NCBI GenBank assembly: GCA_024137785.1
Contig: JAHRHZ010000065.1
Location: 14,547,724-14,611,723, forward strand
Direction: 5' to 3'
DNA length: 64,000 nucleotides
Source of the DNA: Ginglymostoma cirratum
Taxonomy: Eukaryota
Shown here in pieces: positions 8,446 to 64,000 of this stretch. The notes beneath the pieces were generated by a model. The model worked only from the letters and a program-made list of their open reading frames with translations. It was not told the origin of the DNA and did not search any database. The stretch's first letter is position 1; the number at the start of each line of letters is the position of its first letter. A program made the translations under genes and the position numbers.

Positions 8446-8982
8446 AGATAGTAGGAACTGCAGGTGCTGGAGAATCTGAGATAACAAAGTGTGGAGCTGG
8501 ATGAACACNNNNNNNNNNNNNNNNNNNNNNNNNNNNNNNNNNNNNNNNNNNNNNNNNNNNNNNNNNNNNNNNNNNNNNNNNNNNNNNNNNNNNNNNNNNN
8601 NNNNNNNNNNNNNNNNNNNNNNNNNNNNNNNNNNNNNNNNNNNNNNNNNNNNNNNNNNNNNNNNNNNNNNNNNNNNNNNNNNNNNNNNNNNNNNNNNNNN
8701 NNNNNNNNNNNNNNNNNNNNNNNNNNNNNNNNNNNNNNNNNNNNNNNNNNNNNNNNNNNNNNNNNNNNNNNNNNNNNNNNNNNNNNNNNNNNNNNNNNNN
8801 NNNNNNNNNNNNNNNNNNNNNNNNNNNNNNNNNNNNNNNNNNNNNNNNNNNNNNNNNNNNNNNNNNNNNNNNNNNNNNNNNNNNNNNNNNNNNNNNNNNN
8901 NNNNNNNNGAAACGTCAGCTTTCCTGCTCCTCTGATGCTGCTTGGCCTGCTGTGTTCATCCAGCTCCACACCTTGTTATCTC
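8446..8982. mobile_element. Fold-back PLE-derived element, family A, centre lost in an N gap
   Basis: Inverted arms gagataacaa...gatgaacac / gtgttcatc...ttgttatctc, 32-nt left tail, perfect 15-bp TSD AGGAGAAACTGGCAG (8431-8445, 8983-8997). Confidence 0.85.
8509..8908. other. Assembly gap (400 N)
   Basis: Run of N inside a palindromic element. Confidence 0.99.
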
Positions 8983-17707: not shown

Positions 17708-17890
17708 TCAGAGATAGTAAGAACTGCAGATGCTGGAGTCAGAGATAACACAGTGTGGAGCTGGAGGAACACAGCAGGCCAGGCAGCATCAGAGGAGCAA
17801 GAAAGTTGACGTTTCGGGTTGGGAGGTCAATTTTCCTGCTCTTCTGATACCGTCTAGCCTGCTGTGTTCCTCCAGCTCCACACTGTTATC
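17708..17890. mobile_element. Fold-back PLE-derived element, family A, centre deleted
   Basis: Inverted ~65-bp arms, ~36-nt left tail, 10-bp TSD CCCTAAATGT (17698-17707, 17891-17900). Confidence 0.85.
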
Positions 17891-18471: not shown

Positions 18472-18586
18472 AACAAGGTGTAGAGCTGGATGAACACAGT
18501 GGGCCAAGCAGCATCAGAGGAGCAGGAAAGCTGACGTTTCGGGTCTAGACCCTTCTTCAGAAATGAATAAATAATTAAGAATTAAA
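18472..18586 (-). mobile_element. Single-arm family A element with intact minimal hammerhead core (18533-18560)
   Basis: Minus strand reads CTGAAGA-A-GGGTCTAGACCC-GAAA-CGTC. 10-bp TSD TAATTAAGCC (18462-18471, 18587-18596). Confidence 0.8.
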
Positions 18587-19384: not shown

Positions 19385-19644
19385 CTACAAAACAGAGAAG
19401 TTATCAGACATTCCATTATAAATTGCAAAGAAATACGTTTTACACAAGTTAAGCAGCTGGGATACGTTAAGCCTGTGAATATTTCAACACTGCAGTTATT
19501 CTTCCCATTGTAGGTTCTGTCAATGGTTTGAATTATTTCCAAAATAAAATCCAAGTATTTTTGCAGGTATATCAGAACGCAGATCAATGTGCTTACCACT
19601 TGCAACTTAGCAAAACAATTTCAAGCCTTGTATGTTTGAAGAAT

Positions 19645-26640: not shown

Positions 26641-27185
26641 AGGTACATTGTTTGATATGACTTCATCACTAGGAAATATCAGGAAGGCTGGTCATTTGCA
26701 CTCATGCTGGGATTATACCATGTAAAGATAAATCTTTGTTGGTAGTAAGATAAACAAGTTTAAAGAAAATATATTACTTTTAGAATCCTCAAAAGCACCG
26801 TTGAGCAGTCAAATACATTTCATGCATCTAAGCAAAACACTAATCAGGGAATTTTTGGATTTTATTGATGAGATGAAAGAATATCATGCACATTAACAGT
26901 ACATAATTGCCATATATCAATTTGGTCACCAAATTACTTCAATGCAAAATCAATTTTGGAATCATAATTTAAGAAACCTGCACAACTTAATTAAAAGTCT
27001 CAATTGTGCTTAATAAAATAATGGATATGCGTAATTCATCAGGTTTCGCGGTGGTGGTAAATAAAATTTGTTAAACTGTCCAAAATTAAGGGAATCCAAC
27101 TTTTTTCTATACATGTGATTGTGAACCTCTGGAACCTTTTACATTAAGCAGTCTAGGAGAGCGTGATCAGCCAGATCACACTTAC

Positions 27186-27494
27186 CCTTTTAGTTTTAGG
27201 ATACTTGAGGTTGGTTCGATTTGTTTGGGAGGAAATAATAGTTCCCGATGTCGTCTCAACTCCTGGGGTTCCCACGCTTGTCACACCTTCTGCAGCTGTA
27301 GAGTCTGCCACAACAGCTCCTGTTGCTCCCTCCTCAACTGCTACAACTGGCGCTGGTTCTGCCTGGCTGCTTGCTTGTCGTTGTCGACGCAGTCGTTGCG
27401 CTGAACTGGAGCGATAGCGTGAGAACCGATTTTTGGGTCTGGGCTTGGCTGGTTTTGATGCAGGAGGTTTAGCAGGCTTCTCTGGAACTTGTTC
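27186..27494 (-). CDS. SETD5: SETD5 coding exon, 309 nt: EQVPEKPAKPPASKPAKPRPKNRFSRYRSSSAQRLRRQRQ...KYPKTKR
   Basis: tttatag|GAA...AAAAGG|gtaagt. Matches SETD5 [23 protein letters not shown]...KYPKTKK. Confidence 0.94.
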
Positions 27495-28354: not shown

Positions 28355-31300
28355 TACTGCACTACTATATCATAATTTAAATGCTGACTTAAGGACAATG
28401 TAGACTTCATTTGTAGACAGTGTAACTTCATTTCTGGGGTATGGATGTGAACCTAGAGAGTAATGGGATTGAACAAGAAAACGCATCAAACTCAGCTGAT
28501 GGTGAACACAAATTCTATTAATTTTAAAAACAGTTTACAATCACACTCAAAAGGCTTTTAAGATGGATGATAGCAAAATAAATACGCACACACATACACA
28601 CACGAGCAAGAATGTCTGCAATGGACATGTCAGCGAGGCTGCCTGCATAAACATCACTCATTCTGAAGAATGTGAAGACAAATTTTCAAATGCTTGAATC
28701 TTTAGTGCTTGAAAAAGACTTCTAATGAATCTTTTAATACTAAAATAACACTAGGATTGGTACTCTTATGTTATCAACTACACTTTCTGAACTGTTCCTG
28801 ATCAGCAAGAAAATGTAAAATACAATTCTTCCTAAAATATGAAGCTTTGAATGTACTGATCTTTCAGCACACCCCCACTGTTCTGTACAAATTTTATTTC
28901 CTTCCATTCCTTATGTATAATGCTAGGCATATTTCCCAACCATTGTCTTTTGAAATGGGAAATGATTACATTTGGCATAATGACTACTTTGTGGCAGACA
29001 GTAAACAATCTCATCATCTTCAACCTGAAACAATTTTTCATAAGTATAATGGCATGTTTTGGTCGGAGTGGGTGTGCGGAGAGGTGGTGGTTGCTACTGA
29101 TGGTACTAAGATGTGAATGAGAGAATCCTGGCTATGTTTTTAGTTGTGTAGTGGCCACACTTTGTTTACTCACTCACATGCCAATCTCACCAGATGTTAC
29201 CAAGAAATCTTTTCACTTTATCTATTCAGTTTCTTTGGTAGACAGAAGGAAACTATGCTTTACTTTCATATATTTTAATATTTCTGCATCAGTACGTACA
29301 ATGATGCCCATGCAAATGATCAAACACACTAACTTCCTGACACTGTGATTAAAAATAAACATTATGATAGAGGGTTTTGATAGTCAGCCATTGTTAGCGA
29401 GAATTTCCCAGCACATTTTTTAGAAACATGTGGCAGCATGGCACCTAATGGCTGATCAATGACACTACACAAATCGATCCATAAGAAAAAAATCTTTAAA
29501 TACGTTCAAATGATCTAGCCTCCGCAACTCTGAGGTAGATATCTCCAAATATGTGCTACCCACTGGAAGGAATTCCTTCACAACTCAGTTTTAAATTAAT
29601 GTCTTCTTAGTCTGTAACTATGTCTCCCACGTTGAGATCTCCACACTTGGAACATGTTGGAACATTTTCTCAACATCTACATGTTATCTTAATTTTTCTT
29701 CCCCAGAATTTCTATATGGAAATGAAGGAACATTAAATACTGAATTTAATTTGTCTATTTTAATAGCAGGAAATACTCATATTTCCAACTCATCATATTT
29801 CAGTGAAAAAGACAGGAATCAAATTTATATTTTCATTTTCTTTCAGATGAACAGCTCAGCATAAAGTCACTCAACGATTGCTTCAACTCATGAAGCTTTT
29901 CTTTTATGTCCATGAGTAAAAAAGGGTGCAAGCAATGTTTTGATTCACTAGTCTGCTTGCAAACCATATATCTCAAAACTCATTGGGTGTATTTCTACGA
30001 AACCTGGCACACAGATAGGGCAAAGCCCAAGGGAGAACAGATGTAAACTTGGATAAAATGTAAACCCAGATCCTGGAATATTTTATTGGATTAACATAAA
30101 ATTAACATTAGGAGGTAGATTTATTGTTTTAGAACGTTGCAGATTATTTCAGCTGTGTATGCATTTGTCCAAAGAGTGAGCAGCTTTTTCAGAGCAGGTT
30201 CCGGATTTGGGCTGATTTGAAGCCTCCCCAGTGAGATGGAAGATCCTAATGAAAATGTTGTTTTTCAGATTTCTGGTTTCAGAGCATCAACAAGGTAGGG
30301 AAAAGCCTCAGGGAAGTGATGTGATTGTAATCACACCCAGTTAACACAGCATGGTAGAGGTACGTACTCTATTTCTTCATTTATTTAAGAAAGTTAATTT
30401 TTTTTTTCTTCTCCTTACACACTTGTTACCAATTTCCAAATCAACTCTCTCAATATACGAAATAGGAGCAGGAGTAGGCCATTCAGTCTTTCAAGCTGGT
30501 TTTGCCATACATTACATTATGGTTGATTTTCTACTTCAATTCTGTTGCCCATACAGTCAAAAAAACCCTGAGTATCCAAAAATCTACTGCGTATTTTCTA
30601 CAGAAAATGGTCCACAGTTGTGCTTCCACAAGCCCCTTGGGTACAGAACTACAAAGATCTTTAACCGTTTAAGTAATCTCTTATTTTAGCCTAAACAGCC
30701 CTGATTCTGAGACAGTTACCCACTATTTCTAGACACCCCAGCAAAGGCAAACATCCTGGCAATATTTACACCATCATGTCATTTTAAGAATTTCATGTGT
30801 TTCAATGAGATTAGCAATCAATTTTTCCAAAATCCAGGGAATGTAATCTCAGCGTACTCTATCTTTCCACCCAGACAATCCTCTTAGCCCAGTGAACTCA
30901 TCGCATGCCCTCCCGCAAAGCCAGGTGTGTGCATAATTTTAGAATGCCCATTCAGAAAGCCTTATATAAATTGTTAGCTAAGGATTTTGAGAAAGTGGTG
31001 GTGTCGTGGTATTCCAGAACCCAGGCTAATGTTCTGGGGTCATGGGCTCAAATCCCAAAAATCTGGAATTAAAAAAACTAACCTAACGGCAGCATTGCTG
31101 ATAGTTGTAAAACCCCATCTGTTTTACTGATGTCCTTTAGTGAAGGAAATCTGCCATCCTTACCTGGTCTGGTCTAAATATGACTCCAGATGTTTAAAAA
31201 TACAATTAATTCTTAATTGACCTTAATATGGCCTAGCAAACCACTCAGGTCAACAACAATTAAGGACCGGCAATAATTAATGGCCTAACCAGTAATAACC

Positions 31301-32668
31301 ACATCCCAGAACCAATGGAACATGGCAAAATAAAATTTCTGCTCCACTCAGCCCTCCTAAAGGCACAACCATATGACAGGTAATAAGCGAAGGCATGAAA
31401 TGAATGCTGTACTGTAACAAGATATCAGTCAGCAGGTAGCTTTTATGATATATGATTTTTCCTCTCTTTCCTGGGAAATGTACCAGGTATCTATTTCAAT
31501 TACCATTTAAAAGGCTCATTTTCACATGTACCACCAAATATCGAGAAATTTTTTAAACAGCCAAAGTTTGAGAACTATAACATAGACTCACGTACCATTA
31601 GAAACTTAAGAGGCTCTCGCCTAAAAAGGTTATATCCATCCTCAGGTGTTTCACTTTAGGGGAGCAATTTCTAAATGGACTACAGATCCAAAGGCAGCAT
31701 CACAGTAGAGAATTTCGAATGGTTTCCATCTAGATTTGACTAATGTTCACATTCAGTGCAACAAGGAAGGTAGTCAAATGTTAAGTTCATCCTCCCAAGT
31801 TAAAAGACACATCAATAGTTAAACTAGTATCGGTATTCTTTTGGCAGATTTATTGTATGTTACTTAAATAACTTGGTTTGTTAGACTACCCAAGTCACTG
31901 ATGCACCACTTCATTTTTGAGAGATTTTAAACAAATGCTGGTTGAACATCATCTGCTACAAACATGACAACTATATTTCTACTTGACATTTCTGGCATGC
32001 CAGTAAAAAGTTTAGAACAGCATTTCAAACACTAACTGGATAACTTATCCAGATGTGAAGCAGATGGCAAGCCTCTCAGGTTGTCTTCCCAATCTAATTT
32101 TATATGCTTATTTTAATAAAATAGGTAACCATGTTTGTAGCTCCATTGTTTGAAAAATGAAAATCATTCTTGACACATCAATGAACTGACACTGGGATAT
32201 TTTCGAGCAGATACTAGCAATCTAAGATGTACAATTACCAAGTACATTGCACATCTAGAAACGTGAACATTTCCTCAACCAATTTCCTTCCCCTAAAGTA
32301 AATACATCTGTAAACAGTACATGTCACAAAAACATGTCACATCAAGGGAGCTTGGAAATGTATTACTGCCTCTCAGTGTGATTTAGACTGACAGAACTAC
32401 CGCTTTACTTCTGCTGGAGAGGGGAAGAGCAAGACCACCTTGCCAGGCCATTTGCAACTGACTAAACTCCAAACAACAAATCATGTTAGCTTGTTCTCTT
32501 CCCAAACTGCAAGTGCCTGAGCAAAGCCCATACACAATGAAGCACAGAACACCACTAAACAATTAGCACCAAAAATTCCTAACTTTCTCCTCTCCATGAT
32601 GCAGCAATAACACTAATAACCATTCTTGTGCTTCTTTGGCCCATTTGCCATTTAAATTCTCTGCTTAC

Positions 32669-32914
32669 CCCTAGCTGTGAAGTTCGCCGTGTGTTTACCC
32701 CTGTAAGCTGTGGTGGTTTTGCCCCATTGGGTGGCGGTTCTTCTGCTGCAGGCTCCAGTTTCACCTCCTCCACATCTGTGGTTGGAGTCTCCGGGTTGAC
32801 ATCGACACCAGGCTGACTAGCACTGCGCTCAACCACCTGTTCACGCCTTCTCTTTCTCTTCTCTAAGTTTTCAAATACCTGCATGATGGCTTCCATCTTC
32901 CGCTGCTCCCGCGA
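32669..32914 (-). CDS. SETD5: SETD5 coding exon, 246 nt: SREQRKMEAIMQVFENLEKRKRRR...GVNTRRTSQLG
   Basis: ttcacag|TCG...CTAGGG|gtaagc, inside ORF 32579..32956. Matches the conserved REDRKVEAIMHAFENLEKR motif. Confidence 0.95.
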
Positions 32915-34880
32915 CTGTGAACAATGAGCGTCAAAGAAAACAAAAAACATAAACAAACCACGCAGAGGATCAAAATCTTACCTTCAACAACTTATTTCCT
33001 CTCCTACCTCCTCATGTGCAAACACAGTGTTCAATTCCTAGGTGTCAAACCATTTGTCTGTATCACCACACTTATAAAATCATAAGCACCCTAGCTTACA
33101 GTATTGCTAGCAAAGTATTCTTTCTACCATCCTTTTCTTGTCAATTTCACTATGTCACTATATTTCTCGGAATCAATTGTAGCTTATTGTGGCTGCAACA
33201 AAAACAAAGTGCACTCAAAAGAAGATAAAAATATTTCTTCCCCCTTCCAACTTGAAACAGCAAGTACACCCACTGAAATACCAGACTTTTTTTTTGTGTT
33301 TGATTGGCCCCAAAGATTGCATATTTCACATTTCAGCCAGTAGAATTTGCCAATTCCAACATACAGCTTTCTAAGGAGTTAAAGCTCTTCTTTCCACGAA
33401 GGTTCAAGAGGCTAACGCGCCATATCCATTTACAGTGGCATTCCCAAGTGGTAACCATGCTATGTTCTGTCCAATCTGGCACTCTCAAGTGGCAAATTCT
33501 CCATGCAGATTAAATTCTCAATACTTCAAAATTTTAAGAGATAAAAGATCCCACCAAATGGTGCCGAAGAATGGATTCTGGACTTTTGTGGGCTCTCTGA
33601 AATTTGTAACCTCGATGAAATCCTGAGACCTTGACAGCTCTCTAGGGTTTATTATGTTTTAATTTATCTAAAATCAAAGATTTTTCACTCGACATGTATA
33701 GCAAAGGTTATGAGCACAACAATGTACATTATTAAGTTTTTAAAGTGGTTGAAGGGGTCAAGTCTGTAAAGATCATATACAGAGGAATAGTCTTCAAACA
33801 AGCATATCTAATAAGGTTGGTTGAAAATGCAGACCTAATATATGGCAGTAAATGGCTGTTGATAGTATCTTACAAAGCTGCACCATTCAAAGATATCAAT
33901 TAAATACAAACTGGGATTAAACAGCAACAGGTTAGTTTATCCAGCTCTGTGCTTTGCAACCTTCTGCACATTTTAAGGGAAAACAATCCCTTAGATCTTG
34001 CATTGGCGGTACAACATGTCACACTGTGGGACTGCAATGTGACCAAGGGGGATTTTAAATATGATACAGGAGCTGGGTTTTCATGTTGTCAAATGACAAA
34101 GTTTTTTTTAAAAATGTATTATTTTTTGATGTAGGAGCAGAAGGCCATTCGGCCCACTGAGTCCACTTTGCCATTCAATGAGATCATGGCTAATCTGCTA
34201 ATCATCAACTCAAATACGATAGATGGACAGGAAAGTTATGTCTATCTAGAAATCTATCTTTCTTGATCTTCACTGTACTTAACAATCCAGATTTGACTGC
34301 TCTCAATGGTAAAGAATTCCACAGATTCACAAAACCTTAAAAGAAGAAAACTGCTCTGTTACCAGATCCAAAACAGCCTGATCCCGGGTTGTATCCACAA
34401 TATATTGTTCTAGGAAACTATCCCAAACACACGCTGTGAATTTTTTCTTGCGTCTACTTCTGCAAATTAATTTTCCTAATCTACATGAGGGTTAAAGTCA
34501 CCCATAATTAGCATAATCATATCAGTATATATAAAAAACTTCTGATGGTGTATCAATCTAGTATTTATTATGTCATGATACCTCAGGTTGAAATTAACAC
34601 ATCTTCATATATACAGACGATGCTTGCCAGAGGCAAATTGTCCCTGCACACCCCAGGACTGAGGTGTGATTGTTAATCTCTCTCTTGAATAGATACAATG
34701 CATGTTTACAAAGGAATTAATAAAGCTTTAATGATCTACACATATCTGGCCGATTATTAATAAGCCTATTTAATACCTTTACCAGTTCAGGAGCAGTAAT
34801 ATGAGTCGACCATAGGGGGCAATTCCCCAGTAGATGCTGATTTCCCAAAGCTGGACAGGAAAAGAAATCAGTTGAGATCT

Positions 34881-35102
34881 AAGAGTGTGAGGCTAGAAAA
34901 GCACAGCAGGTAAGACAGCAGAGGAGCAAGAAAGTCAAAGTTTCGTGCCAAAACCCTTTGTCAGGATGTTTCGGGCCTGATGAAGGGTTTCAGCCCAAAA
35001 TCGTGATTTTCCTGCTCCTCTGATGCTGTCTGACCTGTTGTGCTTTTCCAACCTCATACCTATAGACTCTGGCTTCCAGTATTTGCAGTCCTTATTGTCT
35101 CC
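34881..35102. mobile_element. Older fold-back PLE-derived element related to family A
   Basis: Inverted arms gaaaagcacagcagg...aaaccctttgtcagg / cctgatgaagggtttcagcccaaaa...ctgttgtgcttttcc, with a right-hand tail ending ttgcagtccttattgtctc. Confidence 0.75.
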
Positions 35103-36093: not shown

Positions 36094-36432
36094 CATAGAA
36101 TCATAGAATTCCTACAGTGTGGGAACAGGCCATTCAACCCAACAAGTCCATATCGACTCTCTGAAGAGCATCCCACCCAAATCCCTACTCTATCGCTGTA
36201 ACCCTGCATTTCCCACGGCTAATCCACCTAACTTATGCATCCCTGAACACTACAGGCAATTTAACATGACCAATCCACTTAACTTGCACATTTTTGGACT
36301 GTGGGAGGAAACCTACGCAGACACAGGGAGAATGTGCAAACTCCACACAGACAGGTGTCCAAGGCTGGAATTGAATCTGGGTCCCTGGCACGGTAAGGCA
36401 GCAGTGCTAACCACTGAGCCACTGTGCCACCC
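36094..36432 (-). mobile_element. HE1-type V-SINE (tRNA head, V domain, CR1-like tail)
   Basis: Revcomp starts ggcacagtggctcagtggttagcactgctgcc (A box), has the V core gagtttgcacattctccctgtgtctgcgt and a (ttctatga) tail. Confidence 0.85.
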
Positions 36433-37709: not shown

Positions 37710-39534
37710 CTGTTTAAAGAAAATGAAGTCAGTGCAGTGAATAGTACTGTACATAAAAGCCTGCACCCCAATTATTATACATTGATATGATGTAGCTCAA
37801 TGTCATCTGTGAAATACAAACTAATACTTTACTGCTCACAATGACATCACTTCTGTCACAGCCCTTCCTTGTGACATCATAAAACAGTTCAACTATCTAC
37901 ATTATTAAACTTTGCCTGAAGCAAGCGCCTGCCCTTTTCATGAATATCTGATATATAAACAAAATAGCACTTTGATGAGCAAGGGTTAACTTTTAAATGT
38001 AATGCTATAAGTTGCAGGCATTCTTTTCAAATGCCAGAAAAAGTGCTTTATGTTGCAAGCTTTTGCGTTATGCACTCTAACCCCAGACATAAATCCACAT
38101 TCTTTGCTATTTTCCTCCACAGGATATATATGTTTACCAGGTATAATTTTGATCAAATTTATTTAACTAATTTCTGAATAATCAATGTGATTACAAAGGT
38201 TTTGTTGTGTTGAGTCCACTCACTGAATAATTAAGTCCACACAGTTCCCAACATTGTTCAAATTGGTATAATTGGAAGTAACTTGTTTTTACTAAAAATG
38301 ATTTACTCTCGAGGCTGATGACCAAGTCAAACATTCTGGAGGTGTTTCAACTTCAAGCAATATCATTATCAGAGATAACCCTTACCGTTGCAACTTTTTT
38401 TTGTAATGGAATGAGATTTGTACAGTATAATGGATCGCAGAAATTTGTTTACAACAGCTAACGATGAGCATATTCTAACACTGCATTTTAGATGCATGAT
38501 AGGACAACAGATATTCAAATAAATTCACAAAGACATGATTGAGTGTGTGTTTTGGGTAACTCAATGTTATTGCAACATCATATTACATTTTCTTCTTTCA
38601 ATGCAAAGGTTTTACTTCCTTTTCATCCAAACATAGAAGGTTGTTGCACTTACAAGCAGGTTCATAAACCAACTAAGGACCACTGTGTTAACACGTATGC
38701 CTCCCAATTAATCTACAACTAAGATCCAGACCAATTCCTCGACTTTGTCCGGAAAGAAAGAGGCGCTTCAAGTCATTTAACAAGAACAGACAGGAAATAT
38801 GCATTCACATCTCGTTTGCAAATTTCCACTTTGAGATCCTACAGAGATGCCTGATGTGTGATACCAAGGTGGTGTTAGCCCATATCTTACTTTCCGACAC
38901 ATGACCTGAATTATAAGAGGCAGCTCTTCATAATAAAAGTGACAGCACATGTATCCACACAGGAGCTATCTTTCTAACAGCCTAGAACTTTGTTGAAGGT
39001 CTTGGAGGGAACTGCCATTCAATCTGAGCTGCTCCACCAAAGTCCCTATCTGTGTGTTATCAATTTCAATAACATACTGTTGTAGTAGAGGAGGATCTGC
39101 ACACTAAATGTATTAAGAGTGAGGGACATACTGAGTGGCAGTGGATTGGACAGAGGAGAAACCTCATCGCATTCACAGGTGCATTTAAAACTTCCTATGG
39201 CAGTGGAAAGTGCAAAGATATCCAACTACTATTAATAAAAACAATTTGATGCTGATTCATAATTTTACTTTCATTCACATACGTATAAGTGACTATGGGT
39301 CTTTGGTACAGGTAATGCCTCTGTCTGAAGGAAGCACTTGAGCTATCTGGTCACACTAGGTTATCCAGTGTCATTCCATAGGTTCAGTTCAAAACAGTTG
39401 TTAAGTTCAAATCACAAGCATATTTTATTCAACCCTGAAACATGATTCTGTGATAATCACATCATACCTAAGCATAAAATGTGTTTTTTTGTGCATTTCT
39501 GATAAAACTTTCACAATATCACTTGCATTACATC

Positions 39535-40250
39535 AGGTACATGAAACAAATGGGTTAATGGCAGGATCCTTGGCAATGCGGAGGAACAGAGAGATCTTGG
39601 GGTCCACATCCATAGATCCCTCAAAGTTGCTACCCAAGTTGATAGGGCTGTTAAGAAGGCGTATGGTGTGTTGGCTTGCATTGGCAGGGGAACTGAGTTT
39701 AAGAGCCGTGAGGTTATGCTGCAGCTCTATAAAACCCTGGTTAGGCCACACTTGGAATATTGTGTTCAATTCTGATCACCTCATTATAGGAAGGATATGG
39801 AAGCTTTAGAGAGGGTGCAGAGGAGATTTACCAGGATGCTGCCTGGACTGGAAGGCAGGTCTTATGAGGAAAGGTTGAGGGAGCTAGGGCTTTTTTCATT
39901 GGAGAGAAGAAAGATGAGAGGTGACTTGATAGAGGTGTACAAGATGATGACAGGCATAGATAGAGCGGAATGCCAGAGACTTTTTCCCAGGGTGGAAAAG
40001 ACTATTACAAGGCGACAAAATTTTAAGGTGATTGGAGGAAGGTATAGGGGAGATGTCAGTGGTAGGTGGTGGGTGCGTGGAATGCGCTGCCGGCAGCGAT
40101 AGTGGAGTCAGATACATCAGGGACATTTAAGCGACTCTGGATAGGCAGATGGAGGATAGTAAAATGTAGGGTATGCAGGGTAGTTTGATCTTAGAGTAGG
40201 ATAATAGGTCGGCACAACATCATCAGTACAACTGCGCTGTTCTATGTTCA
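39535..40250 (+). mobile_element. CR1 LINE 3' fragment, relatively young
   Basis: ORF 39797 ALERVQRRFTRMLPGLEGRSYEERLRELGLFSLERRKMRGDLIEVYK is the classic CR1 ORF2 C-terminus. Confidence 0.92.
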
Positions 40251-41844: not shown

Positions 41845-43650
41845 CTAGGGGACACAGTATTCATGTTCTTTTTCTCTTATGAACCTTAACTAGGTCAAAC
41901 CCAATTTATCCCATTTGCTGCCTTCACATTTTTGTACAGTTTTTCTCAGTTAGCTGAATATGTGCCAAGGGGTTACCAATGTAAGAATATAAATAGGGGC
42001 TATAATTCTTGCCAAAAACACTGATTAAACTTCAGTAACTATCATAAAAAAATTATGCAACCATGGGGGTGGTGGTTGAGGAGGGGTGATGGGGAAAATT
42101 GTCAGTGGTGTAATGTCAATGTTACTGAGCTCATAATCTGGAGCCTAATGCTCTGAGGATGCAGGTTCAAATCTGGTTTGCTAGTATCCCTTCAGGAAGA
42201 AAATCTGCCAACCTTAGGTGGTCTGACCTACATGCAACTCAGGACCCACAAAAATGTGTTTCACTCTTCAATTCCCTCAAAAATGGCCTGGCAAGTTATG
42301 AAGGTAAAGATAAAGTTGCCATAGTCCCAGAGGACCAAAGGGCTGCTCTGCTTTAAAGAGGTATATCTTTTTAACCTGAGGGCTACCACACCTCAGATGA
42401 GGTCAGGAAGGCGAGACCTTCATGATGATCTCAGTCAGAACAAGAATTGAACGCATCCTGTTGGCGTCACTCTGCATTAAAAACTAGTCACCCAGCTAAC
42501 TAAACTAACTGATTCCGTGGTGATCATGCTACTGGATGTTGGTATAAAAGTTAAACAACTTTAACAAAGACATTACATTACCAGGAATTTTATTTTAATT
42601 CCCATGTTTTCAAATACTGAATATGTTGTCACTGGAGGATTATAGTGCAATTTATGTTAAAAAGTGCTAAGTCAGTTAAATCTGGCTGTCAGATTTTTAG
42701 AAAAACAGAACAGTACACAATGAGACTTAGAGATTCCAGTGACCGTTAGCACCAAATACAGCAAATGATTCAGATGATTTTTGAGAGCTCAGAACAAGAT
42801 GTCTGTCTACAATAATGAAAGATGGGAGAATTGTTTTGAATGACGAGTCTGCTGAATGGAGGAGCAAGCGCAGGTCCTGCTCAAAACTATATGAACAAGA
42901 GCCAGGGTGCATTCAGTCAGCTAGTTAGCTTGATCTAGAAGAAAGCCTAACCTTAGGAAATGCAAGTTCATTCATCTGAAACCCTGATCTGATTTAATTC
43001 CAAGGGGCGATCAAAAAATTTTAAACAAGATTGTTCGATAAAAAGATAGTTTTGCTAATTTGCATTGTTTTTCTTCTGTTGAATTAATTAAACCAAGATG
43101 AGATTTGCTTTGCTTTTTTTCAGAACTGCCGTCTATAAAAGAAAGTAGATTAACAATTTGTTTATGGTGCCTTTTAACTACGGTATGTCTGTCTATCTGG
43201 AGAAAAATAAGTAGAGTGCTATGAGTCACAGGTGAAGCCACAATACCTGTTCTGATCATTCAGGGCTCTTTCAGTTACATCTCTGGGATACATCATTTTT
43301 AATATTCATTCATTGAACATGGGTGTCACTGGCATGGCCAGCATTTACTAGACATCCTTAATTGCTTGAGAAAATGCATGATCAGACAATGGGCATGTGA
43401 CAGGTGGTTAAACCTGAATTCACACAAAATCTGCAAGAAATAAAAGCTAGCCTAATTGTGATCATGTAAGCACTACTGATTGTCATTAAAACCTCTCCTG
43501 ATTCACTAATGTCATTTTGGTGAAGGAAATCTGCCATCTTTACCTGGTCTGGCGTATATGCAACTCCAGACTACAGTTGAGTCTTAACTGCCTTCTGGGC
43601 GATTATGGGTAGGTGCTAAGTGCTGGCCTAACCAGTAACATTCAGATCCC

Positions 43651-43835
43651 AAGACAACAAGGTGTAGAGCTGGATGAACACTGCAGGCCAAGCAGCATCA
43701 GAGGAGCAGGAAAGGGTCTAGACCGGAAACATCAACTTTCCTGCTCCTCTGATTCTGCTTGGTCTGCTGTGTTCATCCAATTCTACACCTTGTCGTCTCA
43801 GATTCTCCAGCGTCGGCAGTTCCTACTATCTCTAC
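43651..43835. mobile_element. Fold-back family A element, centre deleted, inserted in a SINE tail
   Basis: Inverted arms, ~36-nt right tail, 14-bp TSD AACAT(T/C)CAGATCCC (43637-43650, 43836-43849). Confidence 0.85.
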
Positions 43836-44052: not shown

Positions 44053-44736
44053 TTAGAAATGTGACTAGTACTATCCAAGACTTAGACTCATACTTGTGAC
44101 AGTGTGAGAAGCTTTATCAGGTAACATCTGTTATAGGGTATCATATGGCTGTGTTGTTAAAGAGACAAACTTAACCACAGCATAAAATTTCCTGAGCCCA
44201 TTATTTGGGATTCTCCAGGAGACAAAAGTCTACTTGAAGTTTCAACAGTTTGGGGAGACAAAGAAATGGAGACTAAAACAGTGAGGGGTGAGGTAGAGGT
44301 GTTTTGTATCTGAGCAATGTAGTTTCTCCATTATCTCATATTTGGAGAAGATAAGACAAGACAGCACAACGTTTAGTTTAGGAAGCTCTTTGGAAAACTT
44401 TGTACCTCAACACAATTAAGTTAATTAATTTTACGTAAATACCAAAAGTTGCCTATTCAAAAGTCTAGATGTCTACAATTAACTGTCCAAATAAATGAAA
44501 AAACTCAAGGAAGAGTAACATGACATCATGGGCTGGGGGGAGTAACTAGTGGGTAGCTCTTGACACTTCCTCTGAATCAGATACGACAGTGTAGTGGAAT
44601 AGTGTAGGTCGGGCGTAACTTGCCAACAAATATACCTAAATATTACTAACAATGATCATTCTCCATGCTCATCCTAGCCAGTAAAGTGACAACAATCTAA
44701 CATCCATTTGCAGTAGTCAAACCAACAAACTTCTCA

Positions 44737-45522
44737 GATAACAAGCATGGGGCTGGATGAACACAGCAGGTCAAGCAGCATCACAGGAGCAGGAAAACTT
44801 GACGTTTCGGGCCTAAACCCTTCATCAGAAACGGTTCTGAGAACCCTCTTCCCCTCCCCCATTTCTGATGAAGGGTTTAGGCCCGAAACATCAAGTTTTC
44901 CCGCTCCTATGATGCTNNNNNNNNNNNNNNNNNNNNNNNNNNNNNNNNNNNNNNNNNNNNNNNNNNNNNNNNNNNNNNNNNNNNNNNNNNNNNNNNNNNN
45001 NNNNNNNNNNNNNNNNNNNNNNNNNNNNNNNNNNNNNNNNNNNNNNNNNNNNNNNNNNNNNNNNNNNNNNNNNNNNNNNNNNNNNNNNNNNNNNNNNNNN
45101 NNNNNNNNNNNNNNNNNNNNNNNNNNNNNNNNNNNNNNNNNNNNNNNNNNNNNNNNNNNNNNNNNNNNNNNNNNNNNNNNNNNNNNNNNNNNNNNNNNNN
45201 NNNNNNNNNNNNNNNNNNNNNNNNNNNNNNNNNNNNNNNNNNNNNNNNNNNNNNNNNNNNNNNNNNNNNNNNNNNNNNNNNNNNNNNNNNNNNNNNNNNN
45301 NNNNNNNNNNNNNNNNCAGGAAAACTTGACGTTTCGGGCCTAAACCCTTCATCAGAAACGGTTCTGAGAACCCTCTTCCCCTCCCCCATTTCTGATGAAG
45401 GGTTTAGGCCCGAAACATCAAGTTTTCCCGCTCCTATGATGCTGCTTGACCTGCTGTGTTCATCCAGCCCCATGCTTGTTATCTCAGATTCACCAGCATC
45501 TGCAGTACCTTTTATCTCTGAT
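44737..45522. mobile_element. Young fold-back family A element with a hammerhead core on each strand, spanning an apparently spurious N gap
   Basis: Minus core 44801-44828 CTGATGAAGGGTTTAGGCCCGAAACGTC; plus core 44865-44892 ending GAAACATC. 12-bp TSD ACAAACTTCTCA (44725-44736, 45523-45534). ~37-nt right tail. Confidence 0.88.
44917..45316. other. Assembly gap (400 N) with overlapping flanks
   Basis: 44790-44916 is identical to 45317-45443. Confidence 0.99.
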
Positions 45523-45924
45523 ACAAACTTCTCATTTTTGTTTTTCTTATTTTTAATAATGGATTTTTGCAAAATGCTGCTAGTTAATGAAGGGTGTAAT
45601 TTCTACAGATTACAAACTAAATGTAATCAAATGTTAACATCATGATCCAATTTAGATTTCTTATAGTTTGGACTTGTTTCGCACAAGGTTGATTATAGAC
45701 AGACTCATCTTTACAATAGAGCTGCTTCATAATTCAATATCTCAATCTATAACCTCACAAATATGTTCAGAAGCAACACATTAAAACAAAGCTTACATTT
45801 AAAAAAGTATTTTTATAGGAATAAAAACAACATTTTTACTCAGAAGCACAGCATTGTGGTTGGCATGGTTAATTTTTAATCATATTTTAAAAAATAATTT
45901 CAGCACACTTCGTGTTATAACCTA

Positions 45925-51067: not shown

Positions 51068-51307
51068 GAGATAGTAAGAACTGCTGATGCTGGAATCAGA
51101 GATAACACAATGTGGAGCTGGAGGAACACAGCAGGCCAGGCAACATCAGAGGAGCAGGAAAGTTGACTTTTCGGGTCAGGACCCTTCTTCAAAAATTCTG
51201 GATTTCTTCAGAATTTCTGAAGAAGGGTCCCAACCCGAACTGTCAACTTTCCTGCTCCTCTGATGCTGCTTGGCCTGTTGTGTTCCTCCAATTCACACTG
51301 TTATCTC
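51068..51307. mobile_element. Fold-back family A element with two decayed hammerhead cores
   Basis: Plus core CTGAAGAAGGGTCCCAACCCGAACTGTC mirrored on the minus strand, ~31-nt left tail, imperfect TSD tgttca(t/g)gtc. Confidence 0.85.
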
Positions 51308-51571
51308 TGTTCAGGTCCCATTGTTGCTTTTGTTGATTACTTTAAATCTGAGCACTCTGGCTTGTGTCCTATTTATCAATGGGAAACATTTTCCCTATCT
51401 ACTCTGTCCAGACCCTCATAATTTGGGATCCCTCTATCAGGCCTCTTCTTAATTTTTCCCTCTCCAAAGGGAAACAATGACAAATTCTTCAATCTATTTT
51501 CATAGGTTCCTTATCCATGGAACCACTCATGAATCTTTTTGGCATTCTCCCTAATGCCTAGACATTGAGTC

Positions 51572-53104: not shown

Positions 53105-53441
53105 AGCGGCACGCTGGCTCAATGGTAAGCATTGCTGCCTCACATCGCCAGGGATCCAGGTCTGGTTCCAGCCTCTGGCAACTTTCTAAGCAGAGTTTGC
53201 ACATTCTCCCTGTCTCTGGATGCTCCAGTTTCCTCCCACTGTCCAAAGATGTGGGGGTTAGGTGTACTGGCCATGCTAAGTTACCCATAGTGTCCACTGA
53301 TGTGCAGGCTAGGTGGGTTAACCATGAGAAATGCAGGTTTACAAGGATAGGGTAGGGGCTTGGGTCTGGGTGGCATGCTGTTTTAGGGTCGGTGTAAATT
53401 CATGGGCCAAATGGCTTGCTTCCACTTGTAGGGATTCTATG
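53105..53441 (+). mobile_element. HE1-type V-SINE
   Basis: Head gcggcacgctggctcaatggtaagcattgctgcc, V core gagtttgcacattctccc...gtttcctcccac, tail gattctatg, TSD-like taaa(t/c)atga. Confidence 0.85.
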
Positions 53442-56072: not shown

Positions 56073-56260
56073 CTTGATTTTTTTGGTTTTGGGGGCATTT
56101 CTTGCTTTTTCTGTGCTTCTCTTTCTCTTCTTCGCCTTGGCTCTCTTTACTCTGTTAACTGTAAGTGTGATGCTGGTGGGTGTGTGTTGTGTCGCAGTGT
56201 ATGACACTGTCGATGGTGAGACTTCCTCATCCCCACTCTCAGTTGCACTGCTATCTCCAC
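56073..56260 (-). CDS. SETD5: SETD5 coding exon, 188 nt: [34 protein letters not shown]...KTKKIK
   Basis: ccccag|GTGGA...ATCAAG|gtaggt, inside ORF 55905..56288. Contains the [14 protein letters not shown] signature and an NLS-like basic tract. Confidence 0.95.
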
Positions 56261-57091: not shown

Positions 57092-57521
57092 CTGTGAAAA
57101 TCAACACCGATTACAACACAATGAATTACTGATGATCAAACCTGTAACCAAGAATTTTAAATCAGTGTTGATTCAGCTTCTCTCAAAGGCTACATTACTC
57201 CATAAAAAGTAAATTATAAACGGAGTCATTAAGTACTACAATAAGTTGCTTCGAGAAATATTATCATTTAGTGGCATTAGTTTTTCGGTGTTTTTAAAAA
57301 AATACAACGAAATCCTGAACACACAGGGTGCTGTGTGCTATTTATAAACATAAATCAACTAATTGCAAACAATAATAAAACAGCTGTTAATTGGTCTTTC
57401 ACTCATGTTTTTTTTTCTTGGGAGGTGTTCCTTTAGTGAGCTCTTTTGGAGTTCATGCCAAATCACTGAACCAACTGTGCCTGTTCAAAAATTCCCTTAG
57501 ATGTCTAGTGCCACTTCATAC

Positions 57522-57733
57522 CTGCAATTTTCGCAAGCGATAATAAAACCATCCTGAGTTAAACTACAATGGCACCAAGGAATGTTCTCATCCTCAGATG
57601 AACTGTCACTATCTTCAGAATTATCATCATATCGCTGGCAACGTAGACTATTAAGCTCTACTCGGGCAATGATGGTCTGTGGAGGTGGTGAAGCTGGGGG
57701 TGTTGGAGGAGGTGGAGCACCATAGTTGTGGTC
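57522..57733 (-). CDS. SETD5: SETD5 coding exon, 212 nt: DHNYGAPPPPTPPASPPPQTIIAR...WCHCSLTQDGFIIACENCR
   Basis: ttttaag|GAC...TGCAG|gtatga, inside ORF 57497..57778. Carries DHNY and the first half of a PHD-like motif (CxC...CxxC). Internal acceptor at 57676. Confidence 0.93.
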
Positions 57734-59257
57734 CTTAAAATAAAAGGACAAGTCATGAAAACACAAAATAAGTGACACAGAATAGAAGAAAACACAAAGC
57801 AGTATTGAGGCAAACAGGTCTGGAACAACTGACTTTTCAGTATAATTTCTTTATTACCTCAACATTATAAACCAACTTCCTTTATGCACATAATAGTCAA
57901 TATAAAATGCTATTCAATTGTTTTTCAATTCATTTTCTCATTTAAACAAATATTTTAAGAAACAATTATCATACATGGAATTTTCACACGAACCATGCCT
58001 GAAGTCACTCTGTCCAAACTGTAGCATAATCCAAACCAAAGAGGTCAAAACATATTCTGTACTAATTTCAACCATAGGGACATCATGTTAAATACAAGCT
58101 CGAAACATTTCTCAGATAATCTAAGAATTTGGTAACTTAATATAAATGGTAAAGCACAGATGGTTCTGTCTTGATCTAAAGTATGACAAAAAGCTACATT
58201 CAATATATTACTATTACTACACTACCTGTATCCAAACCTTGAAATTAACTGAATAAGGCCCAGTGCAAAAGGCAGCTGAATGGCATCAATTTCCACGTGT
58301 CTCTAATTCTAGCTGGAACACAGTACGTGATTTTGCTTCCCTGCTTTGTAACTTCCATTCCCCCCTCAATTTTAAATGGAGTGCTCATTTAGCTTCTTTC
58401 TTTCCTCATCATTTCCTGAGCATAAGCAGTGACACTGAGTGCAAAAGCCACTTGTAATTGAGTCAAAGTATCTGAAATCTTCTTCAGAGTCTCACTGATA
58501 ACCTCAGCCAATACTGCACCAGTAGGAAAACCATATTCTATAGGAAAACATTCTGATGCACCACTACAAAGTATATTTGTTAACTGCCATTAGAGTTGAC
58601 TAGTTATAAAAGCAAACACATTGCACACGTTAAACTTTTGGAATAAGGTACTGAATTGACTTTCAACATGGGCTGGGTTCTCCTTTCATATAAACATAGC
58701 ATTTTAACTATGATATTTCTCATTTAAACAACATTAATTTTCATAAACAGGAAGAAACAGCCTCAAATTTCTCTTTCCTTAAGCAGATGAAAACCGCATG
58801 GTCAGATTAAAAGGTTTGGTATCTTGAGGCATGCACCATCTTAAGATCAGGTGAAAAGGGCAAACAGTTTGCTTCCTTGGGAAGAAAGCCACCAATAAAC
58901 CATACACCTTTATAATTGTAAAGAAGACTACTCCTAATATTGCTCTCGAGTACAGAACGAATAAAGATAGATTCTGAAGGTGTATTACACCTGGAAAGCA
59001 GTCAACCGTCTATGTCAGTAAGGAACTGCTGCATGGACATTGCCAGTGATAAGTAAATAATTTGAACATAAAAACAGAAAATGCTGGAAATATTCAGCTA
59101 GTTCAGTAACACCTGCAGAGACAGAAACTGGGCTGGATTTTCATTTCCAAATGGAGGCGGGAACATGTTAGAGAGAGTAAAATATTTATTTTTTTGATTG
59201 CAAATTCCAGACTCCCATCCATTTTTTGTGTGGCTTTTTTTTTACTGGTCAGGCAGA

Positions 59258-59975
59258 AAGATGAAGTCCTGGGGATGTTGCTGAACAAAGAGATCTTGAA
59301 GTTCAGGTTCACAGTTCCTTGAAAGTGGAGTCGGCGGTAGATAGGATAGTGAAGGCGACGTTTGGTATGCTTGCCTTTATTGGTCAGTGCATTGAGTAGA
59401 GGAATTAGGTGGTCATGTGGTGGCTGTACAGGACACTTGTTTGGCCACTTTTGGAGTATTGCGTGCAATTCTGGTCTCCCTCTAATTGGGAGGACATTGT
59501 GAAACTAGGAAGGGTTCAGAAAAGATTTACGAGGGTTGGACGGTTTGAGCTACAGAGACAGGCTGAATTGGCTGGGGCTATTTTCCCTGGAGCGTGGAAG
59601 CTGAGTAGTAACCTTATAGAGGTTTTTAAGGTCATGAAGGGTATGGATAGGGTAAATAGGCAAGGTCTTTTCCCTGGGGTGGGAAGTCCAAACCTAGAGG
59701 GCACAGGTTTAAGACGAGAGGGGAAAGATATAAAAGGGACCCAAGGGGCAGCTTTTTCACACAGGGTGGTGTGGGTTTGGAATGAGCTGCCAAAGGAAGT
59801 GGTGGGGGCGGGTACGCTTACAACATTTAAAAGACATCTGATTGGATATATGAATAGGAAGGGTTTTAGAGGGCTGTGGGCCAAATACTGGCAAATGTGA
59901 CTAGATTTATATCGGATACCTGGTCGGCATAAACAAGTTGGACCGAAGGATCTGTTTCCATGCTGTATATCTCCA
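59258..59975 (+). mobile_element. CR1 LINE 3' fragment
   Basis: ORF 59409 LYRTLVWPLLEYCVQFWSP...VQKRFTR...VWNELP...TFKRHL. Confidence 0.92.
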
Positions 59976-60961
59976 TCACTCAGTGGCCATAATTGCAAGC
60001 CTTGTATGCACCTCTTCTCAAATTAGCGTCGACATTGTGAGCACCAGGAAATTTGAATTTCCTTCTTCATATTGCGTGTGTGCTCGCATGTGTTCGCAGT
60101 AGATCTGGAACCCCATAAAGAAGGTTCGAGAGCCTATGACCAATGGGAGAAAGCAGCTGAGAATTGTGGGATATTCTGACAGCTGTGCGTCAATTGTTTT
60201 GACACATCCAAATCTCAAAATTAGGTGCTGCATTAAAACATGCATCTCCACATCAACAATAACCTGAGGCGTCTTGATAGTTGACAGTAACTGAGAGTGA
60301 GGGAACATAAGAATATGTCGGTGATCTGGGCTAATATCCTAACAAACCAAGATCGGCCTTCACGCCAGCCCACTTTGACACCTGCACTCGTTGGAAACTG
60401 CCTCAGGACTCAGAAAACCCAAACCATCCTCACCCATGCCTTTAGGAGACAGAAATATGGCAGATATGAACAAAGGTGTCAGGCTTGCGATTTGAAATTG
60501 GGAAATTGCCCAATTCACATTTCTTGGTCTTAACACAAAAATCAAGCTCAGAGTATGCATTTCAAGTTGTGATCTTTCATCATAAACGTTTCTGGCATTT
60601 TGCAATAGAAGACAACAAAAGCAATTCAATTTATTTTAAATACATTGCAGGTTTAAAGATTGACAAATTTCAAACAATCGTAACAATTTTTGCAAGAAAA
60701 AAGGTTTTTATTGTTTGGCAATATTGTTTGATGAGTTCAGGCAGTGTCACAGAAAAGGTAATAGGGAACTATAGGTTTCCTAAACAACTGAGTAATTTAA
60801 AAAAGATGCAAAAATTCTCATTCTGTCGCAGAGTACATCCCAGCATATGATACATGTCTAGCAAGCGTAAATGAGCCATGGGACAAGTTTGAACGATTAA
60901 CTTAAATTGGTTAAATTATTTCAAAGGAATAATCTGGCTTTCTTCTTTATCCACTGAGGTA

Positions 60962-61091
60962 GCAAAAACTGTAGAAGCTGCAGCCAGAGGCAACACAGCG
61001 TGGAGCAGGTCAGGCAGCATCACAGGAGTAGGAAAGTTGATGTGTTGGGCCGGGACCCTTCTTCAGAAAATTCACACTGTGTTGTCTCTTG
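60962..61091. mobile_element. Truncated fold-back family A element
   Basis: Minus core CTGAAGAAGGGTCCCGGCCCAACAC (decayed), short inverted arm, 12-bp TSD TCCACTGAGGTA (60950-60961, 61092-61103). Confidence 0.8.
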
Positions 61092-62044: not shown

Positions 62045-64000
62045 CTAAAACAATAAAAGCAAAGTCAAAATATCATTTGTTTGCAATTTTTCCTCTGCAG
62101 CTTCAAAAATTTTGTTTTTCTCATTGGAACTTAATCCTTTAGACATCAAATGAGGCTTTCACTTTTCCCTTAGCCTTGCTGCCACAGTTCAACACCTCAT
62201 GCCTTCTCTCGTCACCTCTAACCAAGGCAACATGAGGCAAAAATATAATTTGTAAAGCGGGACTAATACGTTTCTCCATATTCACTCACAGCGCACTGCT
62301 AGTAATAAGGCCAGTATTTATTTTCCACCCCTAACTACTGGAATATGGCAATGAGTTGTTTTCTTGACCAAGCATGAGAGTGGTCAAAGGCAGAATGCAG
62401 AAGGGGAGTGGGAAAAGATGGCTTTTGAGAGGGGATGCGGAAGACAGAGAGCGAGAGCGTGAGAGATTTTCACAGAATCAAATTGACTTGGGAACCCTTA
62501 AAAAAAATGACAGCCAGAACCCAATTCCAGAATTTCCGACTCCAAACTTGGGTTCTCCTATTTTAACCAGGGCCTTTAAAAAGCACAGACTGGATCAGGT
62601 CACAATCCTGTACCCAACACTCTCAACCTGGACTGCTCCATTGCGAAGCTCAGCAGAGCCTACTGCACAATTTTCTTGAAGTTCAGTCAGGCTTTTAAAT
62701 GAACATGTACCATAGTTGTGCATACAAGAACCTTTTGGAAGATAAGTTCAAAGGGTGTTCCAGTTCCCCATACTAAGGCGTGTCCTTCAAATGCGCACCC
62801 TGGCTCCTCAGGTTCTCCATCCCAGAGTATGTCCCTCCTGTGATGCTCTACAGCCTTTTGTACCCCAAGCCAAATAAAGCTTCTTCAACCAACTCCAATG
62901 GCCCATCATGACCAACCAAGCAATAGTATGCTACTTTCATGCCCAGTCACCCACTCTATGGTGGATAGAATTAATGACCTCATTAAAAAAAAAATGCTTT
63001 AAGACATGATAATTCATTTTGTTAACACCAATAAGTTTAAAAATAATTGTGTCCTGAAACTTCTATTGAGCTGTAACCATTCAGACATTTTAAATATTCA
63101 ACTCACTCTCCAACCTGAAAAAAAGAGGAAACAGGCTGAAAACCAGTGAAGCCCATACAAACAAGCAGTGAAACCTTAGCAGAGATCAGTCAGGGAGAGC
63201 TACCAAACAAGCTAGGGCCCAAAATAATGCAAGGTAGTAAAGATTCTCAGATTTCCTCAGATGATGAAGCTTGTCTGAGAGGACAGACAACCATCATTGA
63301 TTGAAATCTCTGTTTGTGATCTTGATCAATTACACATTGCTTTTCAGATATTGAAACTTTAAAAGGTCTGGATAATTGAAACCTTTATTGGGTTTCAGTG
63401 AGTGGAGGTGTTTTTTTCCCTAAAAGAAACACTAGAGGCATTATCAAAGTTTTTCTTAAACACATCCAACTGTGCAGTGGTGGAAAATGCCCAGAACCTC
63501 CATCACAACAGACAGCAGACTGACTGACTCAAACATCATGTCTACTGACAAGTAATTCCCAGGGCAAATAGCAGTCACAAAGTACTTGCTGGACCTTTAT
63601 TATGATTGGGACAAAAAAGACAAACACCTCAACTTTCTCCTTCCCTGTAGACTTGGCGTGCAAAAACTCCTTCAAATCGCACATTCTGCCTCTGGAGGAG
63701 CAGCAAGATCATGAGAGGGGTCTTGTGACCAGGGGAGGTGGAGAGGCCAGTGTCAAGAGAACAGAATCTGTGATTGGAGCAGCAGTTTTGCCTTTTCCAT
63801 GCTGGCTACTCCTCCAATCGCAACTTTGCGATCAGTTCCCACGCTTTCTAACTGCAGAGCTGCAATTTTTTAAAAATCCGATAGGAAGGCTGGTAAAGAT
63901 ATTTAAAATGGTGAACTTGTGAGATGCGGAAGTCAGACAACTGCTAAATAACAGAAATTTCTCAACCCTGTCTTGATCCAACTGGGTGGCCTGCAACAGC

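Follow-up and report, generated by a model that had tools for sequence, protein, structure and literature searches.

The locus at 44725-45534 of a 64,000-nucleotide stretch of the Ginglymostoma cirratum genome (the window) raises the question of what a short palindromic insertion with a hammerhead ribozyme motif is, and of how two copies of one unit come to lie head to head within it. A first-pass annotation had treated the whole span as one element, yet it is not an 810-nt insertion, as its length from TSD to TSD includes a 400-N assembly gap (44917-45316) and the sequence at 44790-44916 is repeated at 45317-45443. We infer a single element of ∼260 nt, partly assembled twice around the gap. 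Since no contig or read bridging this gap was found, the overlap rests on the exact 127-nt repeat and on the single pair of TSDs. Throughout, the unit is numbered with C3 of CUGA as 0, which puts the predicted cut between +27 and +28. The minus-strand arm has an intact core that is predicted to be buried inside a hairpin, while in the plus-strand arm (GAAACATC) the ACGT palindrome is broken and the CG of stem III is lost. Beyond the tail of the plus-strand arm and its three templated bases, the next four bases are compatible with element and target alike.

Table 1. The focal element and the other insertions of the same unit in the window (positions of the 64,000-nucleotide stretch).
Feature	Positions	Strand	Remarks
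Inverted pair, tailed minus arm and tailless plus arm	8446..8982	.	400-N gap in centre (8509-8908); 15-nt TSD
Inverted pair, arm starts +17 and +25, without CUGANGA	17708..17890	.	13-nt TSD, one mismatch
Single tailless arm from -5, intact core, C3 at 18560	18472..18565	-	Descriptor match
Inverted pair, older subfamily, 77% to L064, degenerate cores	34881..35101	.	TSD looked for, none found
Inverted pair joined within stem II (+32 / +6), without CUGA	43651..43833	.	14-nt TSD, one mismatch
Left TSD, focal element	44725..44736	+	12 nt, identical copy at 45523-45534
Focal tailless arm, unit ∼-6 to +92	44737..44834	-	98% identity with the terminal 3' sequence of L064, an autonomous copy
Intact minimal hammerhead core: CUGAUGA, extra A, 4-bp stem II, GAAA, ACGU, GUC triplet	44801..44828	-	Descriptor match; cut predicted between 44801 and 44800
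Focal tailed arm, first assembled part; starts at unit -25, C3 at 44865	44840..44916	+	Core GAAACATC, palindrome broken at CpG
400-N assembly gap within focal element	44917..45316	.	
Exact duplicate of 44790-44916 beyond gap	45317..45443	.	127 nt, 100%; assembly overlap (inferred)
Focal tailed arm, continuation to unit +93	45444..45485	+	
34-nt PLE tail (+94 to +127) and three templated bases into TSD	45486..45522	+	Continuation into ORF leader seen in L072
Right TSD, focal element	45523..45534	+	Identical to 44725..44736
Inverted pair, both arms from -4, both cores mutated, extra re-primed pieces centrally	51068..51309	.	10-nt TSD, one mismatch
Tailed minus arm from -3 and 20-nt tailless inverted partner	60956..61089	.	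12-nt flanking repeat, read by eye

All eight insertions named by the first-pass annotation are present in the window and derive from one unit (Table 1); of these, 18472 is a single arm. The arms are unequal, one with a 34-nt tail and the other with none. The unit start that the annotation had proposed, CTGA(T/A)GA...GAAA-CGTC, has three matches in the window against none in 100 shuffles, and at 17708 and 43651 CTGA(T/A)GA itself is absent. At 51068, 60962, and 34881 the cores are mutated and at 8446 the core is hidden by the gap. The claim that a hammerhead core is carried on both strands had to be given up, since only two real window arms fit our minimal-hammerhead descriptor, with C3 at 18560 and 44828, both on the minus strand; the further match at 45355 is the gap duplicate and not another arm. 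An Rfam scan of the window returned 22 matches, none above gathering score and none to a hammerhead even at E ≤ 10; minimal hammerhead motifs need a descriptor. No PLE coding sequence or PLE ORF was found in the window. Both window gaps (8509-8908 and 44917-45316) fall inside unit palindromes.

The unit was identified as the 3' end (pLTR) of an autonomous Penelope-like element (PLE) with RT and GIY-YIG domains. Parent loci were chosen by GIY-YIG family alone, and 29 of the 30 carry the unit downstream in the same orientation, mostly ∼290 nt after the ORF, while the 30th has a gap at that place. That a PLE shares this terminus, as the earlier interpretation requires, is thereby borne out. L061 contains a 714-aa open frame in which RVT_1 (residues 207 to 367, with a YIDD motif) scores below the Pfam cut-off (E = 2.6e-5) and GIY-YIG (600 to 677) above it; no whole unbroken PLE ORF was seen among the copies examined. 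The general plan can be read from L072, which consists of an inverted arm, a 5' pLTR with hammerhead and tail, the ORF leader, the ORF, and a 3' pLTR without tail, with the unit standing both before and after the ORF. The first ATG of the long ORF lies ∼35 nt past the tail. Many copies also have a second long frame of 330 to 345 codons, rich in Ser, Pro, and Thr, which shares its strand with the PLE ORF and overlaps the 3' half of that ORF (for example, L061:4144-5166 and L062:3844-4839); it may reflect codon bias only.

The shark element has the hallmarks described for endonuclease-positive PLEs (Craig et al. 2021, PMC8557442; Arkhipova et al. 2013, PMC3846280), namely, an ORF with RT and C-terminal GIY-YIG, flanking pLTR units, an adjacent inverted truncated copy, a tail (30 to 40 nt in the published elements) at one end, short TSDs of variable length, TATA/Inr-like words in the pLTR, and assembly trouble at inverted structures. 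Between RT and endonuclease, L061, L062, and other copies have the linker CNRRKCYTC. This fits CX2-5CxxC, the linker by which the Neptune clade is defined and which is common to Nematis too (PMC8557442), and the parent is a candidate member of Neptune.

The exact core has 81,651 matches in the 4.36-Gb genome and none in the control, whereas one-base-longer variants of the core number 86. This copy number is about ten times the 4,000 to 9,000 reported for coelacanth and Xenopus (PMC4209133). For counts of arms, 1,464,000 bases were fetched irrespective of arm structure, 456,120 of them N and 1,007,880 non-N; the sample is not random, as it combines 464 kb surrounding the window with two blocks of contig C1 that were picked because they had known matches and with 10-kb pieces taken at even intervals. 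Pair counts are based on 150 family-1 arms, left after 10 older-family arms were dropped from 160, and the histogram of 5' ends is based on the 131 resolved arms that remain when 19 with a gap at the 5' end are set aside. At 150 arms per 1.008 Mb, the element makes up ∼4.5% of the sampled DNA, and of 20 assembly gaps of 400 N in the sample, 12 are bordered by the unit on each side, figures of practical weight.

The 3' ends of the arms are bimodal, near +93 and +127, so that 75 arms are tailed and 74 tailless, with 1 unclear. With such numbers, about half of all pairs would be one-tailed by chance. Instead, all 37 scorable head-to-head pairs (38 pairs, one unscorable) join one tailed arm to one tailless arm, and five short hidden partners beside "solo" arms obey the same rule (5/5), giving 42/42 in total. 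In known PLEs the tail is described as optional or as often found at one end (PMC8557442, PMC3846280), whereas in the shark element the asymmetry is strict. Among targeted loci, one of which overlaps the sample, the rule was followed in 24 of 27, and the exceptions (two tailless-tailless and one tailed-tailed) are all compound insertions. TSDs of at least 8 nt (8 to 18 nt) flank 30 of the 38 pairs compared to 7 of 300 random positions, in agreement with the variable-length duplications first described; 25 of these 30 are 12 to 18 nt long and ten are 15 nt, lengths that include microhomology.

These observations bear on the possibility of a DNA-transposon MITE with terminal inverted repeats. 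Such elements are palindromic, short, and numerous, as the present ones are. In place of equal terminal inverted repeats, a fixed-length TSD, a uniform interior, and a matching transposase, we find a tail on one side only, TSDs of 8 to 18 nt, a different centre in every copy, and a sequence that is the terminus of an RT element. The MITE reading is thus already refuted and retains practically no credence, as the first-pass annotation had also held.

That PLEs carry hammerheads is already established, and the motif itself is an ordinary one. Our descriptor gave 58 matches in the 1,007,880 non-N sampled bases and 0 to 1 in each of 10 shuffles; an extra base follows CUGANGA in 57 of the 58, and the matches have G10.1:C11.1 and a palindromic CG at 15.2/16.2. 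The minimal hammerheads of metazoan PLEs (Cervera and de la Pena 2014, PMC4209133) likewise have no loop III, a base between 9 and 10.1, G10.1:C11.1, a palindrome at 15.2-16.2, and a short stem I, and occur in thousands of copies in truncated PLEs. Pairs of minimal hammerheads on opposite strands, 100 to 700 bp apart, were already reported in truncated PLEs by the same study, as was low activity even as dimers (PMC4209133); a dimer result of Lunse et al. 2017 is relayed by a review (PMC6765202). Unlike the hammerheads of PMC4209133, stem II here is 4 bp long in the young family and 5 to 7 bp in two other families of this genome. No shark is named in two supplement files of that paper.

In the core region, variation inside family 1 is confined to N7, loop II, and decayed CpGs, and the changes between subfamilies fall on N7, loop II, and the flanks. 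The flanks too are well conserved, with a mean of 0.92 against 0.97, which makes for a weak contrast. Pairing across families appears to be better evidence for a hammerhead than this within-family conservation. In three families whose flanks are unrelated, pairing is maintained in both stems while the letters differ, the 5' strand alone being independent evidence because the families were sorted by downstream letters. The commonest stem I pairs are UA, UA, U.G, and AU in the young family, UA, UA, GC, and AU in family E, and AU, CG, GC, and U.G in the third family (4 copies); stem II measures 4, 5, and 6 bp across the three with different letters, and subfamilies D and B are mismatched at pair 3. 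The assignment to minimal type I hammerheads of the PLE kind is upheld by this covariation together with the descriptor matches and their extra base.

Two further hammerhead groups were noticed along the way. One is an older PLE-end family with a 5-bp stem II and a GUU triplet, an overlooked copy of which stands in the window at 9366-9490 (minus). Members of this family are frequent in the sample, and in L128 and L099 they are found downstream of divergent PLE coding fragments. The other, a third hammerhead family, combines a 6- to 7-bp stem II with a Watson-Crick stem I that has different letters, and it occurs at L136:8913, L138:5779, L178:4426, and L186:7788.

Two intact cores are found in none of the 21 short pairs and in 5 of all 38 pairs. 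When a head-to-head stump is folded, the predicted hairpin has an energy of -103 to -122 kcal/mol and leaves stem II at probability 0, and the antisense arm is transcribed first in either direction. The hairpin is therefore predicted to hide the hammerhead motif instead of offering a ribozyme on both strands, which removes the ground for the proposal that transcription of either strand presents a ribozyme. The hammerhead fold is also disfavoured by its predicted energy in the monomer (-2.6 versus -9.3 kcal/mol) and in the dimer (-3.5 versus -28.8 kcal/mol), and this agrees with the protein dependence reported for the hammerhead of the anole Poseidon element PAc (Frangieh et al. 2024, PMC11167929). 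RNA reads on L072 contained no RNA ends at the predicted cut, and the back-joints in these reads are indistinguishable from genomic tandem copies. The hammerhead is probably a constrained feature of the parent RNA that is copied as a passenger, with uncut RNA as the usual template.

The same results weigh on the reading originally proposed, in which PLE machinery spreads a non-autonomous palindromic family as a unit and transcripts of either strand are cleaved. The very high copy number (150 arms per 1.008 Mb), the TSDs, and the 7 of 21 short pairs that reach C3 on both arms would suit such a family, and PLE-derived non-autonomous retrozymes exist in vertebrates (bioRxiv 10.64898/2026.07.22.740005). 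These non-LTR retrozymes resemble the shark copies in being short, non-coding, and pLTR-derived, in having a type I hammerhead, and in occurring in a cartilaginous fish; they form head-to-tail tandem families with a lineage of their own, whereas the shark stumps are head to head or single and have none (bioRxiv 10.64898/2026.07.22.740005). Dimer cleavage needs two same-sense cores, and a head-to-head pair supplies no such cores; the rarity of pairs with two intact cores and the predicted hairpin count against this reading as well.

The population structure is unfavourable to it too. About 40% of arms are stumps of 100 to 130 nt with a common 5' edge, and the 21 short-pair junctions are all distinct. 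When 52 short and 33 long arms are placed on one tree, 22 changes of label are needed (shuffled mean, 26.2), with at least 8 forced by well-supported branches, and no bootstrap tree out of 200 unites the short arms in a single clade; this tree has few columns and many open forks. Because the junctions differ in 21/21 pairs and short and long arms interleave on the tree, the stumps appear to be made afresh by each subfamily of the autonomous element and to have no family of their own. A separate non-autonomous family now seems to us very improbable.

We instead consider it probable that the stumps are the shortest insertions of the autonomous PLE itself, produced when both target strands are nicked and the RNA is copied twice. 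The PLE protein would nick the two strands ∼12 to 17 bases apart, the element RNA would be copied once per nick from two fixed sites 34 bases apart, and the two truncated copies would then meet head to head. Both arms would be templated by RNA, and neither would be a copy of the other, because the arm that extends further 5' is often the tailless one, the tail being present on the other alone. Of the 22 resolved pairs, 8 have a tailless arm that extends 5' by at least 5 nt more than its mate, 8 have a tailed arm that extends further, and 6 are equal, a pattern that later deletion at the hairpin centre could mimic in short pairs. In 8 of the 14 gap-free long pairs, the tailless arm exceeds its mate by hundreds of bases; the tailed arm is the longer in 5, with 1 pair equal, and in L070 a tail-only arm faces a tailless arm of 1.4 kb. 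Mates are closer to each other than to most arms (a median of 6% of other arms are closer). Rare variants are common to mates in 8 of 94 cases in short pairs compared to 177 of 12,416 in non-mates; as mates share so few of them, one shared RNA molecule is not supported, and one or two molecules both fit.

A head-to-head structure could also arise by fold-back self-priming: a palindrome would let a cDNA or antisense template turn back and be extended on its own sequence, and the product would then be resolved at the tail by the endonuclease. Self-priming from palindromes was already proposed for inverted PLE junctions (PMC3846280), and the tail has been ascribed to endonuclease resolution (PMC8557442). 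Some junctions here do lie in the palindromic stem II or in A/T palindromes, and one tail per insertion is predicted by this route likewise. A fold-back copy, however, cannot hold sequence that is absent from the first strand, which is what 8 of the 22 resolved pairs and 8 of the 14 gap-free long pairs show. We regard this explanation as already strained and rather unlikely. The tail asymmetry and the non-containment of the arms together favour priming on both target strands from two RNA start sites. The overlap of the arms, which argues against self-priming, sets the shark element apart from published PLEs, as does the 40% share of stumps with a common 5' edge.

L1 twin priming also uses primers from both target strands and yields an inverted insertion with a TSD, with two segments that represent non-overlapping parts of the RNA; the arms of the shark element, in contrast, overlap and start at two fixed sites. 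A parallel to priming on both strands is provided by the anole PAc protein, which is predicted to be dimeric, nicks and extends both strands, starts at two sites that bound the tail, and uses uncut RNA (PMC11167929). As in the shark element, the hammerhead of PAc lies upstream of the start sites, and in PAc it is dispensable for insertion (PMC11167929). The two differ in that PAc belongs to the Poseidon clade and its ORF begins inside the hammerhead (PMC11167929), whereas the first ATG of the shark ORF follows the tail. The anole study reports no strand difference in start site in vitro, which counts against a fixed rule linking strand and site, and in its available text we found no tie between double priming and head-to-head insertions (PMC11167929).

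The arms also have a sharp 5' edge, with 53 of the 131 resolved arms (25 tailed, 27 tailless, and one unclear) starting at -8 to +1. Genome-wide exact matches of the young subfamily fall from 58,684 through -3 to 44,977 through -4, 39,707 through -5, 35,871 through -6, and 33,381 through -8, corresponding to losses of 23%, 12%, and 10% per base from -3 to -6 compared to 3.5% per base at -7/-8. On the strength of a TATA-like box at -31, an Initiator-like word, and an extra G, we think it reasonably likely that the pile-up of 5' ends at -6 to -2 marks the start of a capped Pol II transcript. The Initiator consensus is YYANWYY, and it is fitted by CCATTTC, which holds A(-4) in 42 of 51 long copies. 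TATTTA is located at exactly -31 in 36 of the 51. The older family, with few long copies, has TCAGTTC and TATA-like words at -27 to -31, a similar spacing with other letters. A promoter in the pLTR was demonstrated in Drosophila Penelope (PMC2377424), and TATA/Inr-like words were reported in rotifer pLTRs (PMC3846280).

Where C(-5) is absent, G stands directly before A(-4) in 2,843 of 5,270 matches. With slippage and other-arm CAG contexts excluded, the G:T ratio is 82:18 among the matches listed, or 64:18 without the ATG context. An untemplated 5' G has been credited to cap copying in L1/SVA (PMC3287187). Inspection of 20 G cases left 8 without another explanation; slippage accounted for 6, the other arm for 4, a TSD for 1, and mutation for 1, which counts against the cap. 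Also against it, the largest 5' junction class has T and not G before TTTC (79 of 100 among the matches listed, of 13,707), junctions that we read as palindromic joins. A poly(A) run and an amplicon-like run mapped on L072 gave no pile-up of starts or ends, and 84% of the poly(A) reads ran on into other sequence.

The 5' edge might instead reflect an RT stall or a microhomology hot spot at the AT-rich ATTT before a C-rich tract, with all else as in the double-priming model. This possibility is favoured by the A/T microhomology or slippage repeats at many junctions, by T as the most frequent junction base at -4, and by the preference of the anole endonuclease for ATT (PMC11167929). Neither the excess of G (82/100 among the matches listed) nor a TATA-like box at exactly -31 (36/51) is predicted by it, and in the older family the starts fall at the same position although the letters there are different, so that we find this possibility unlikely, if less so than fold-back. 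Two other sources of the edge were rejected. Only 1 of 141 arms starts within 2 nt of the predicted ribozyme cut (at +29), and of six arms at +32/33 at most one could, by eye, have started there. A splice acceptor is equally unsuitable, as family 1 has no AG at that place and the upstream sequence differs at every locus.

If the edge is a capped start, priming in the 5' pLTR of the transcript would let the enzyme run off after 100 to 130 bases and leave a stump, whereas priming in the 3' pLTR would give the long truncated copies. We lean, by a little, toward a combined scheme in which an enzyme with two sites would, in every insertion, start on one target strand at +127 and on its partner at +93, giving head-to-head insertions with a one-sided tail without self-priming; the capped transcript would start at the first base of stem I, 31 bases below the TATA-like box, and the hundreds of thousands of stumps would be strong-stop-like run-off copies of uncut RNA. 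This two-site, run-off reading of the stumps was not found in the literature searched. Neither were the shark family and its double-priming reading, although Dfam, Repbase, or preprint supplements may list the family or its pLTR, nor any paper on Penelope elements of Orectolobiformes.

The published views compete between self-priming on an antisense template and two start sites with double nicking, the latter in vitro. The strict tail asymmetry, arms that cannot derive from one another by copying, a 5' edge that is sharp and shows an additional G, and the near absence of starts at the cut site provide counts that discriminate between these models, and they yield exact predictions for the existing in vitro system and for 5'-end mapping.

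Some junctions, in L233, L236, L225, L243, and the window (51197-51212), contain short 5'-edge pieces in repetition, as if synthesis had been re-primed more than once at the template end. These pieces resemble repeat addition by the related telomerase RT.

Several other features of the window were recorded. Exon-like frames occur on the minus strand at 57500-57850, 56073-56258, 32582-32977, 27156-27494, 19014-19400, and 395-1057. They resemble what we take to be a SETD5/KMT2E-type gene, for which searches gave no confirming match; if that is the host gene, all eight elements would be located in introns and the two intact cores would have the orientation of the host's sense strand. Another dispersed repeat family, presumably SINE-like, is present at 15220-15419, 20363-20671, 31020-31308, 42190-42244, 43319-43651, and 62292-62337, and the element at 43651 sits inside one of its copies. 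The segments 39405-40099, 59106-59897, 36175-36428, and 53108-53365 represent presumed 3' fragments of CR1/L2-type LINEs and a second inverted-orientation repeat pair.
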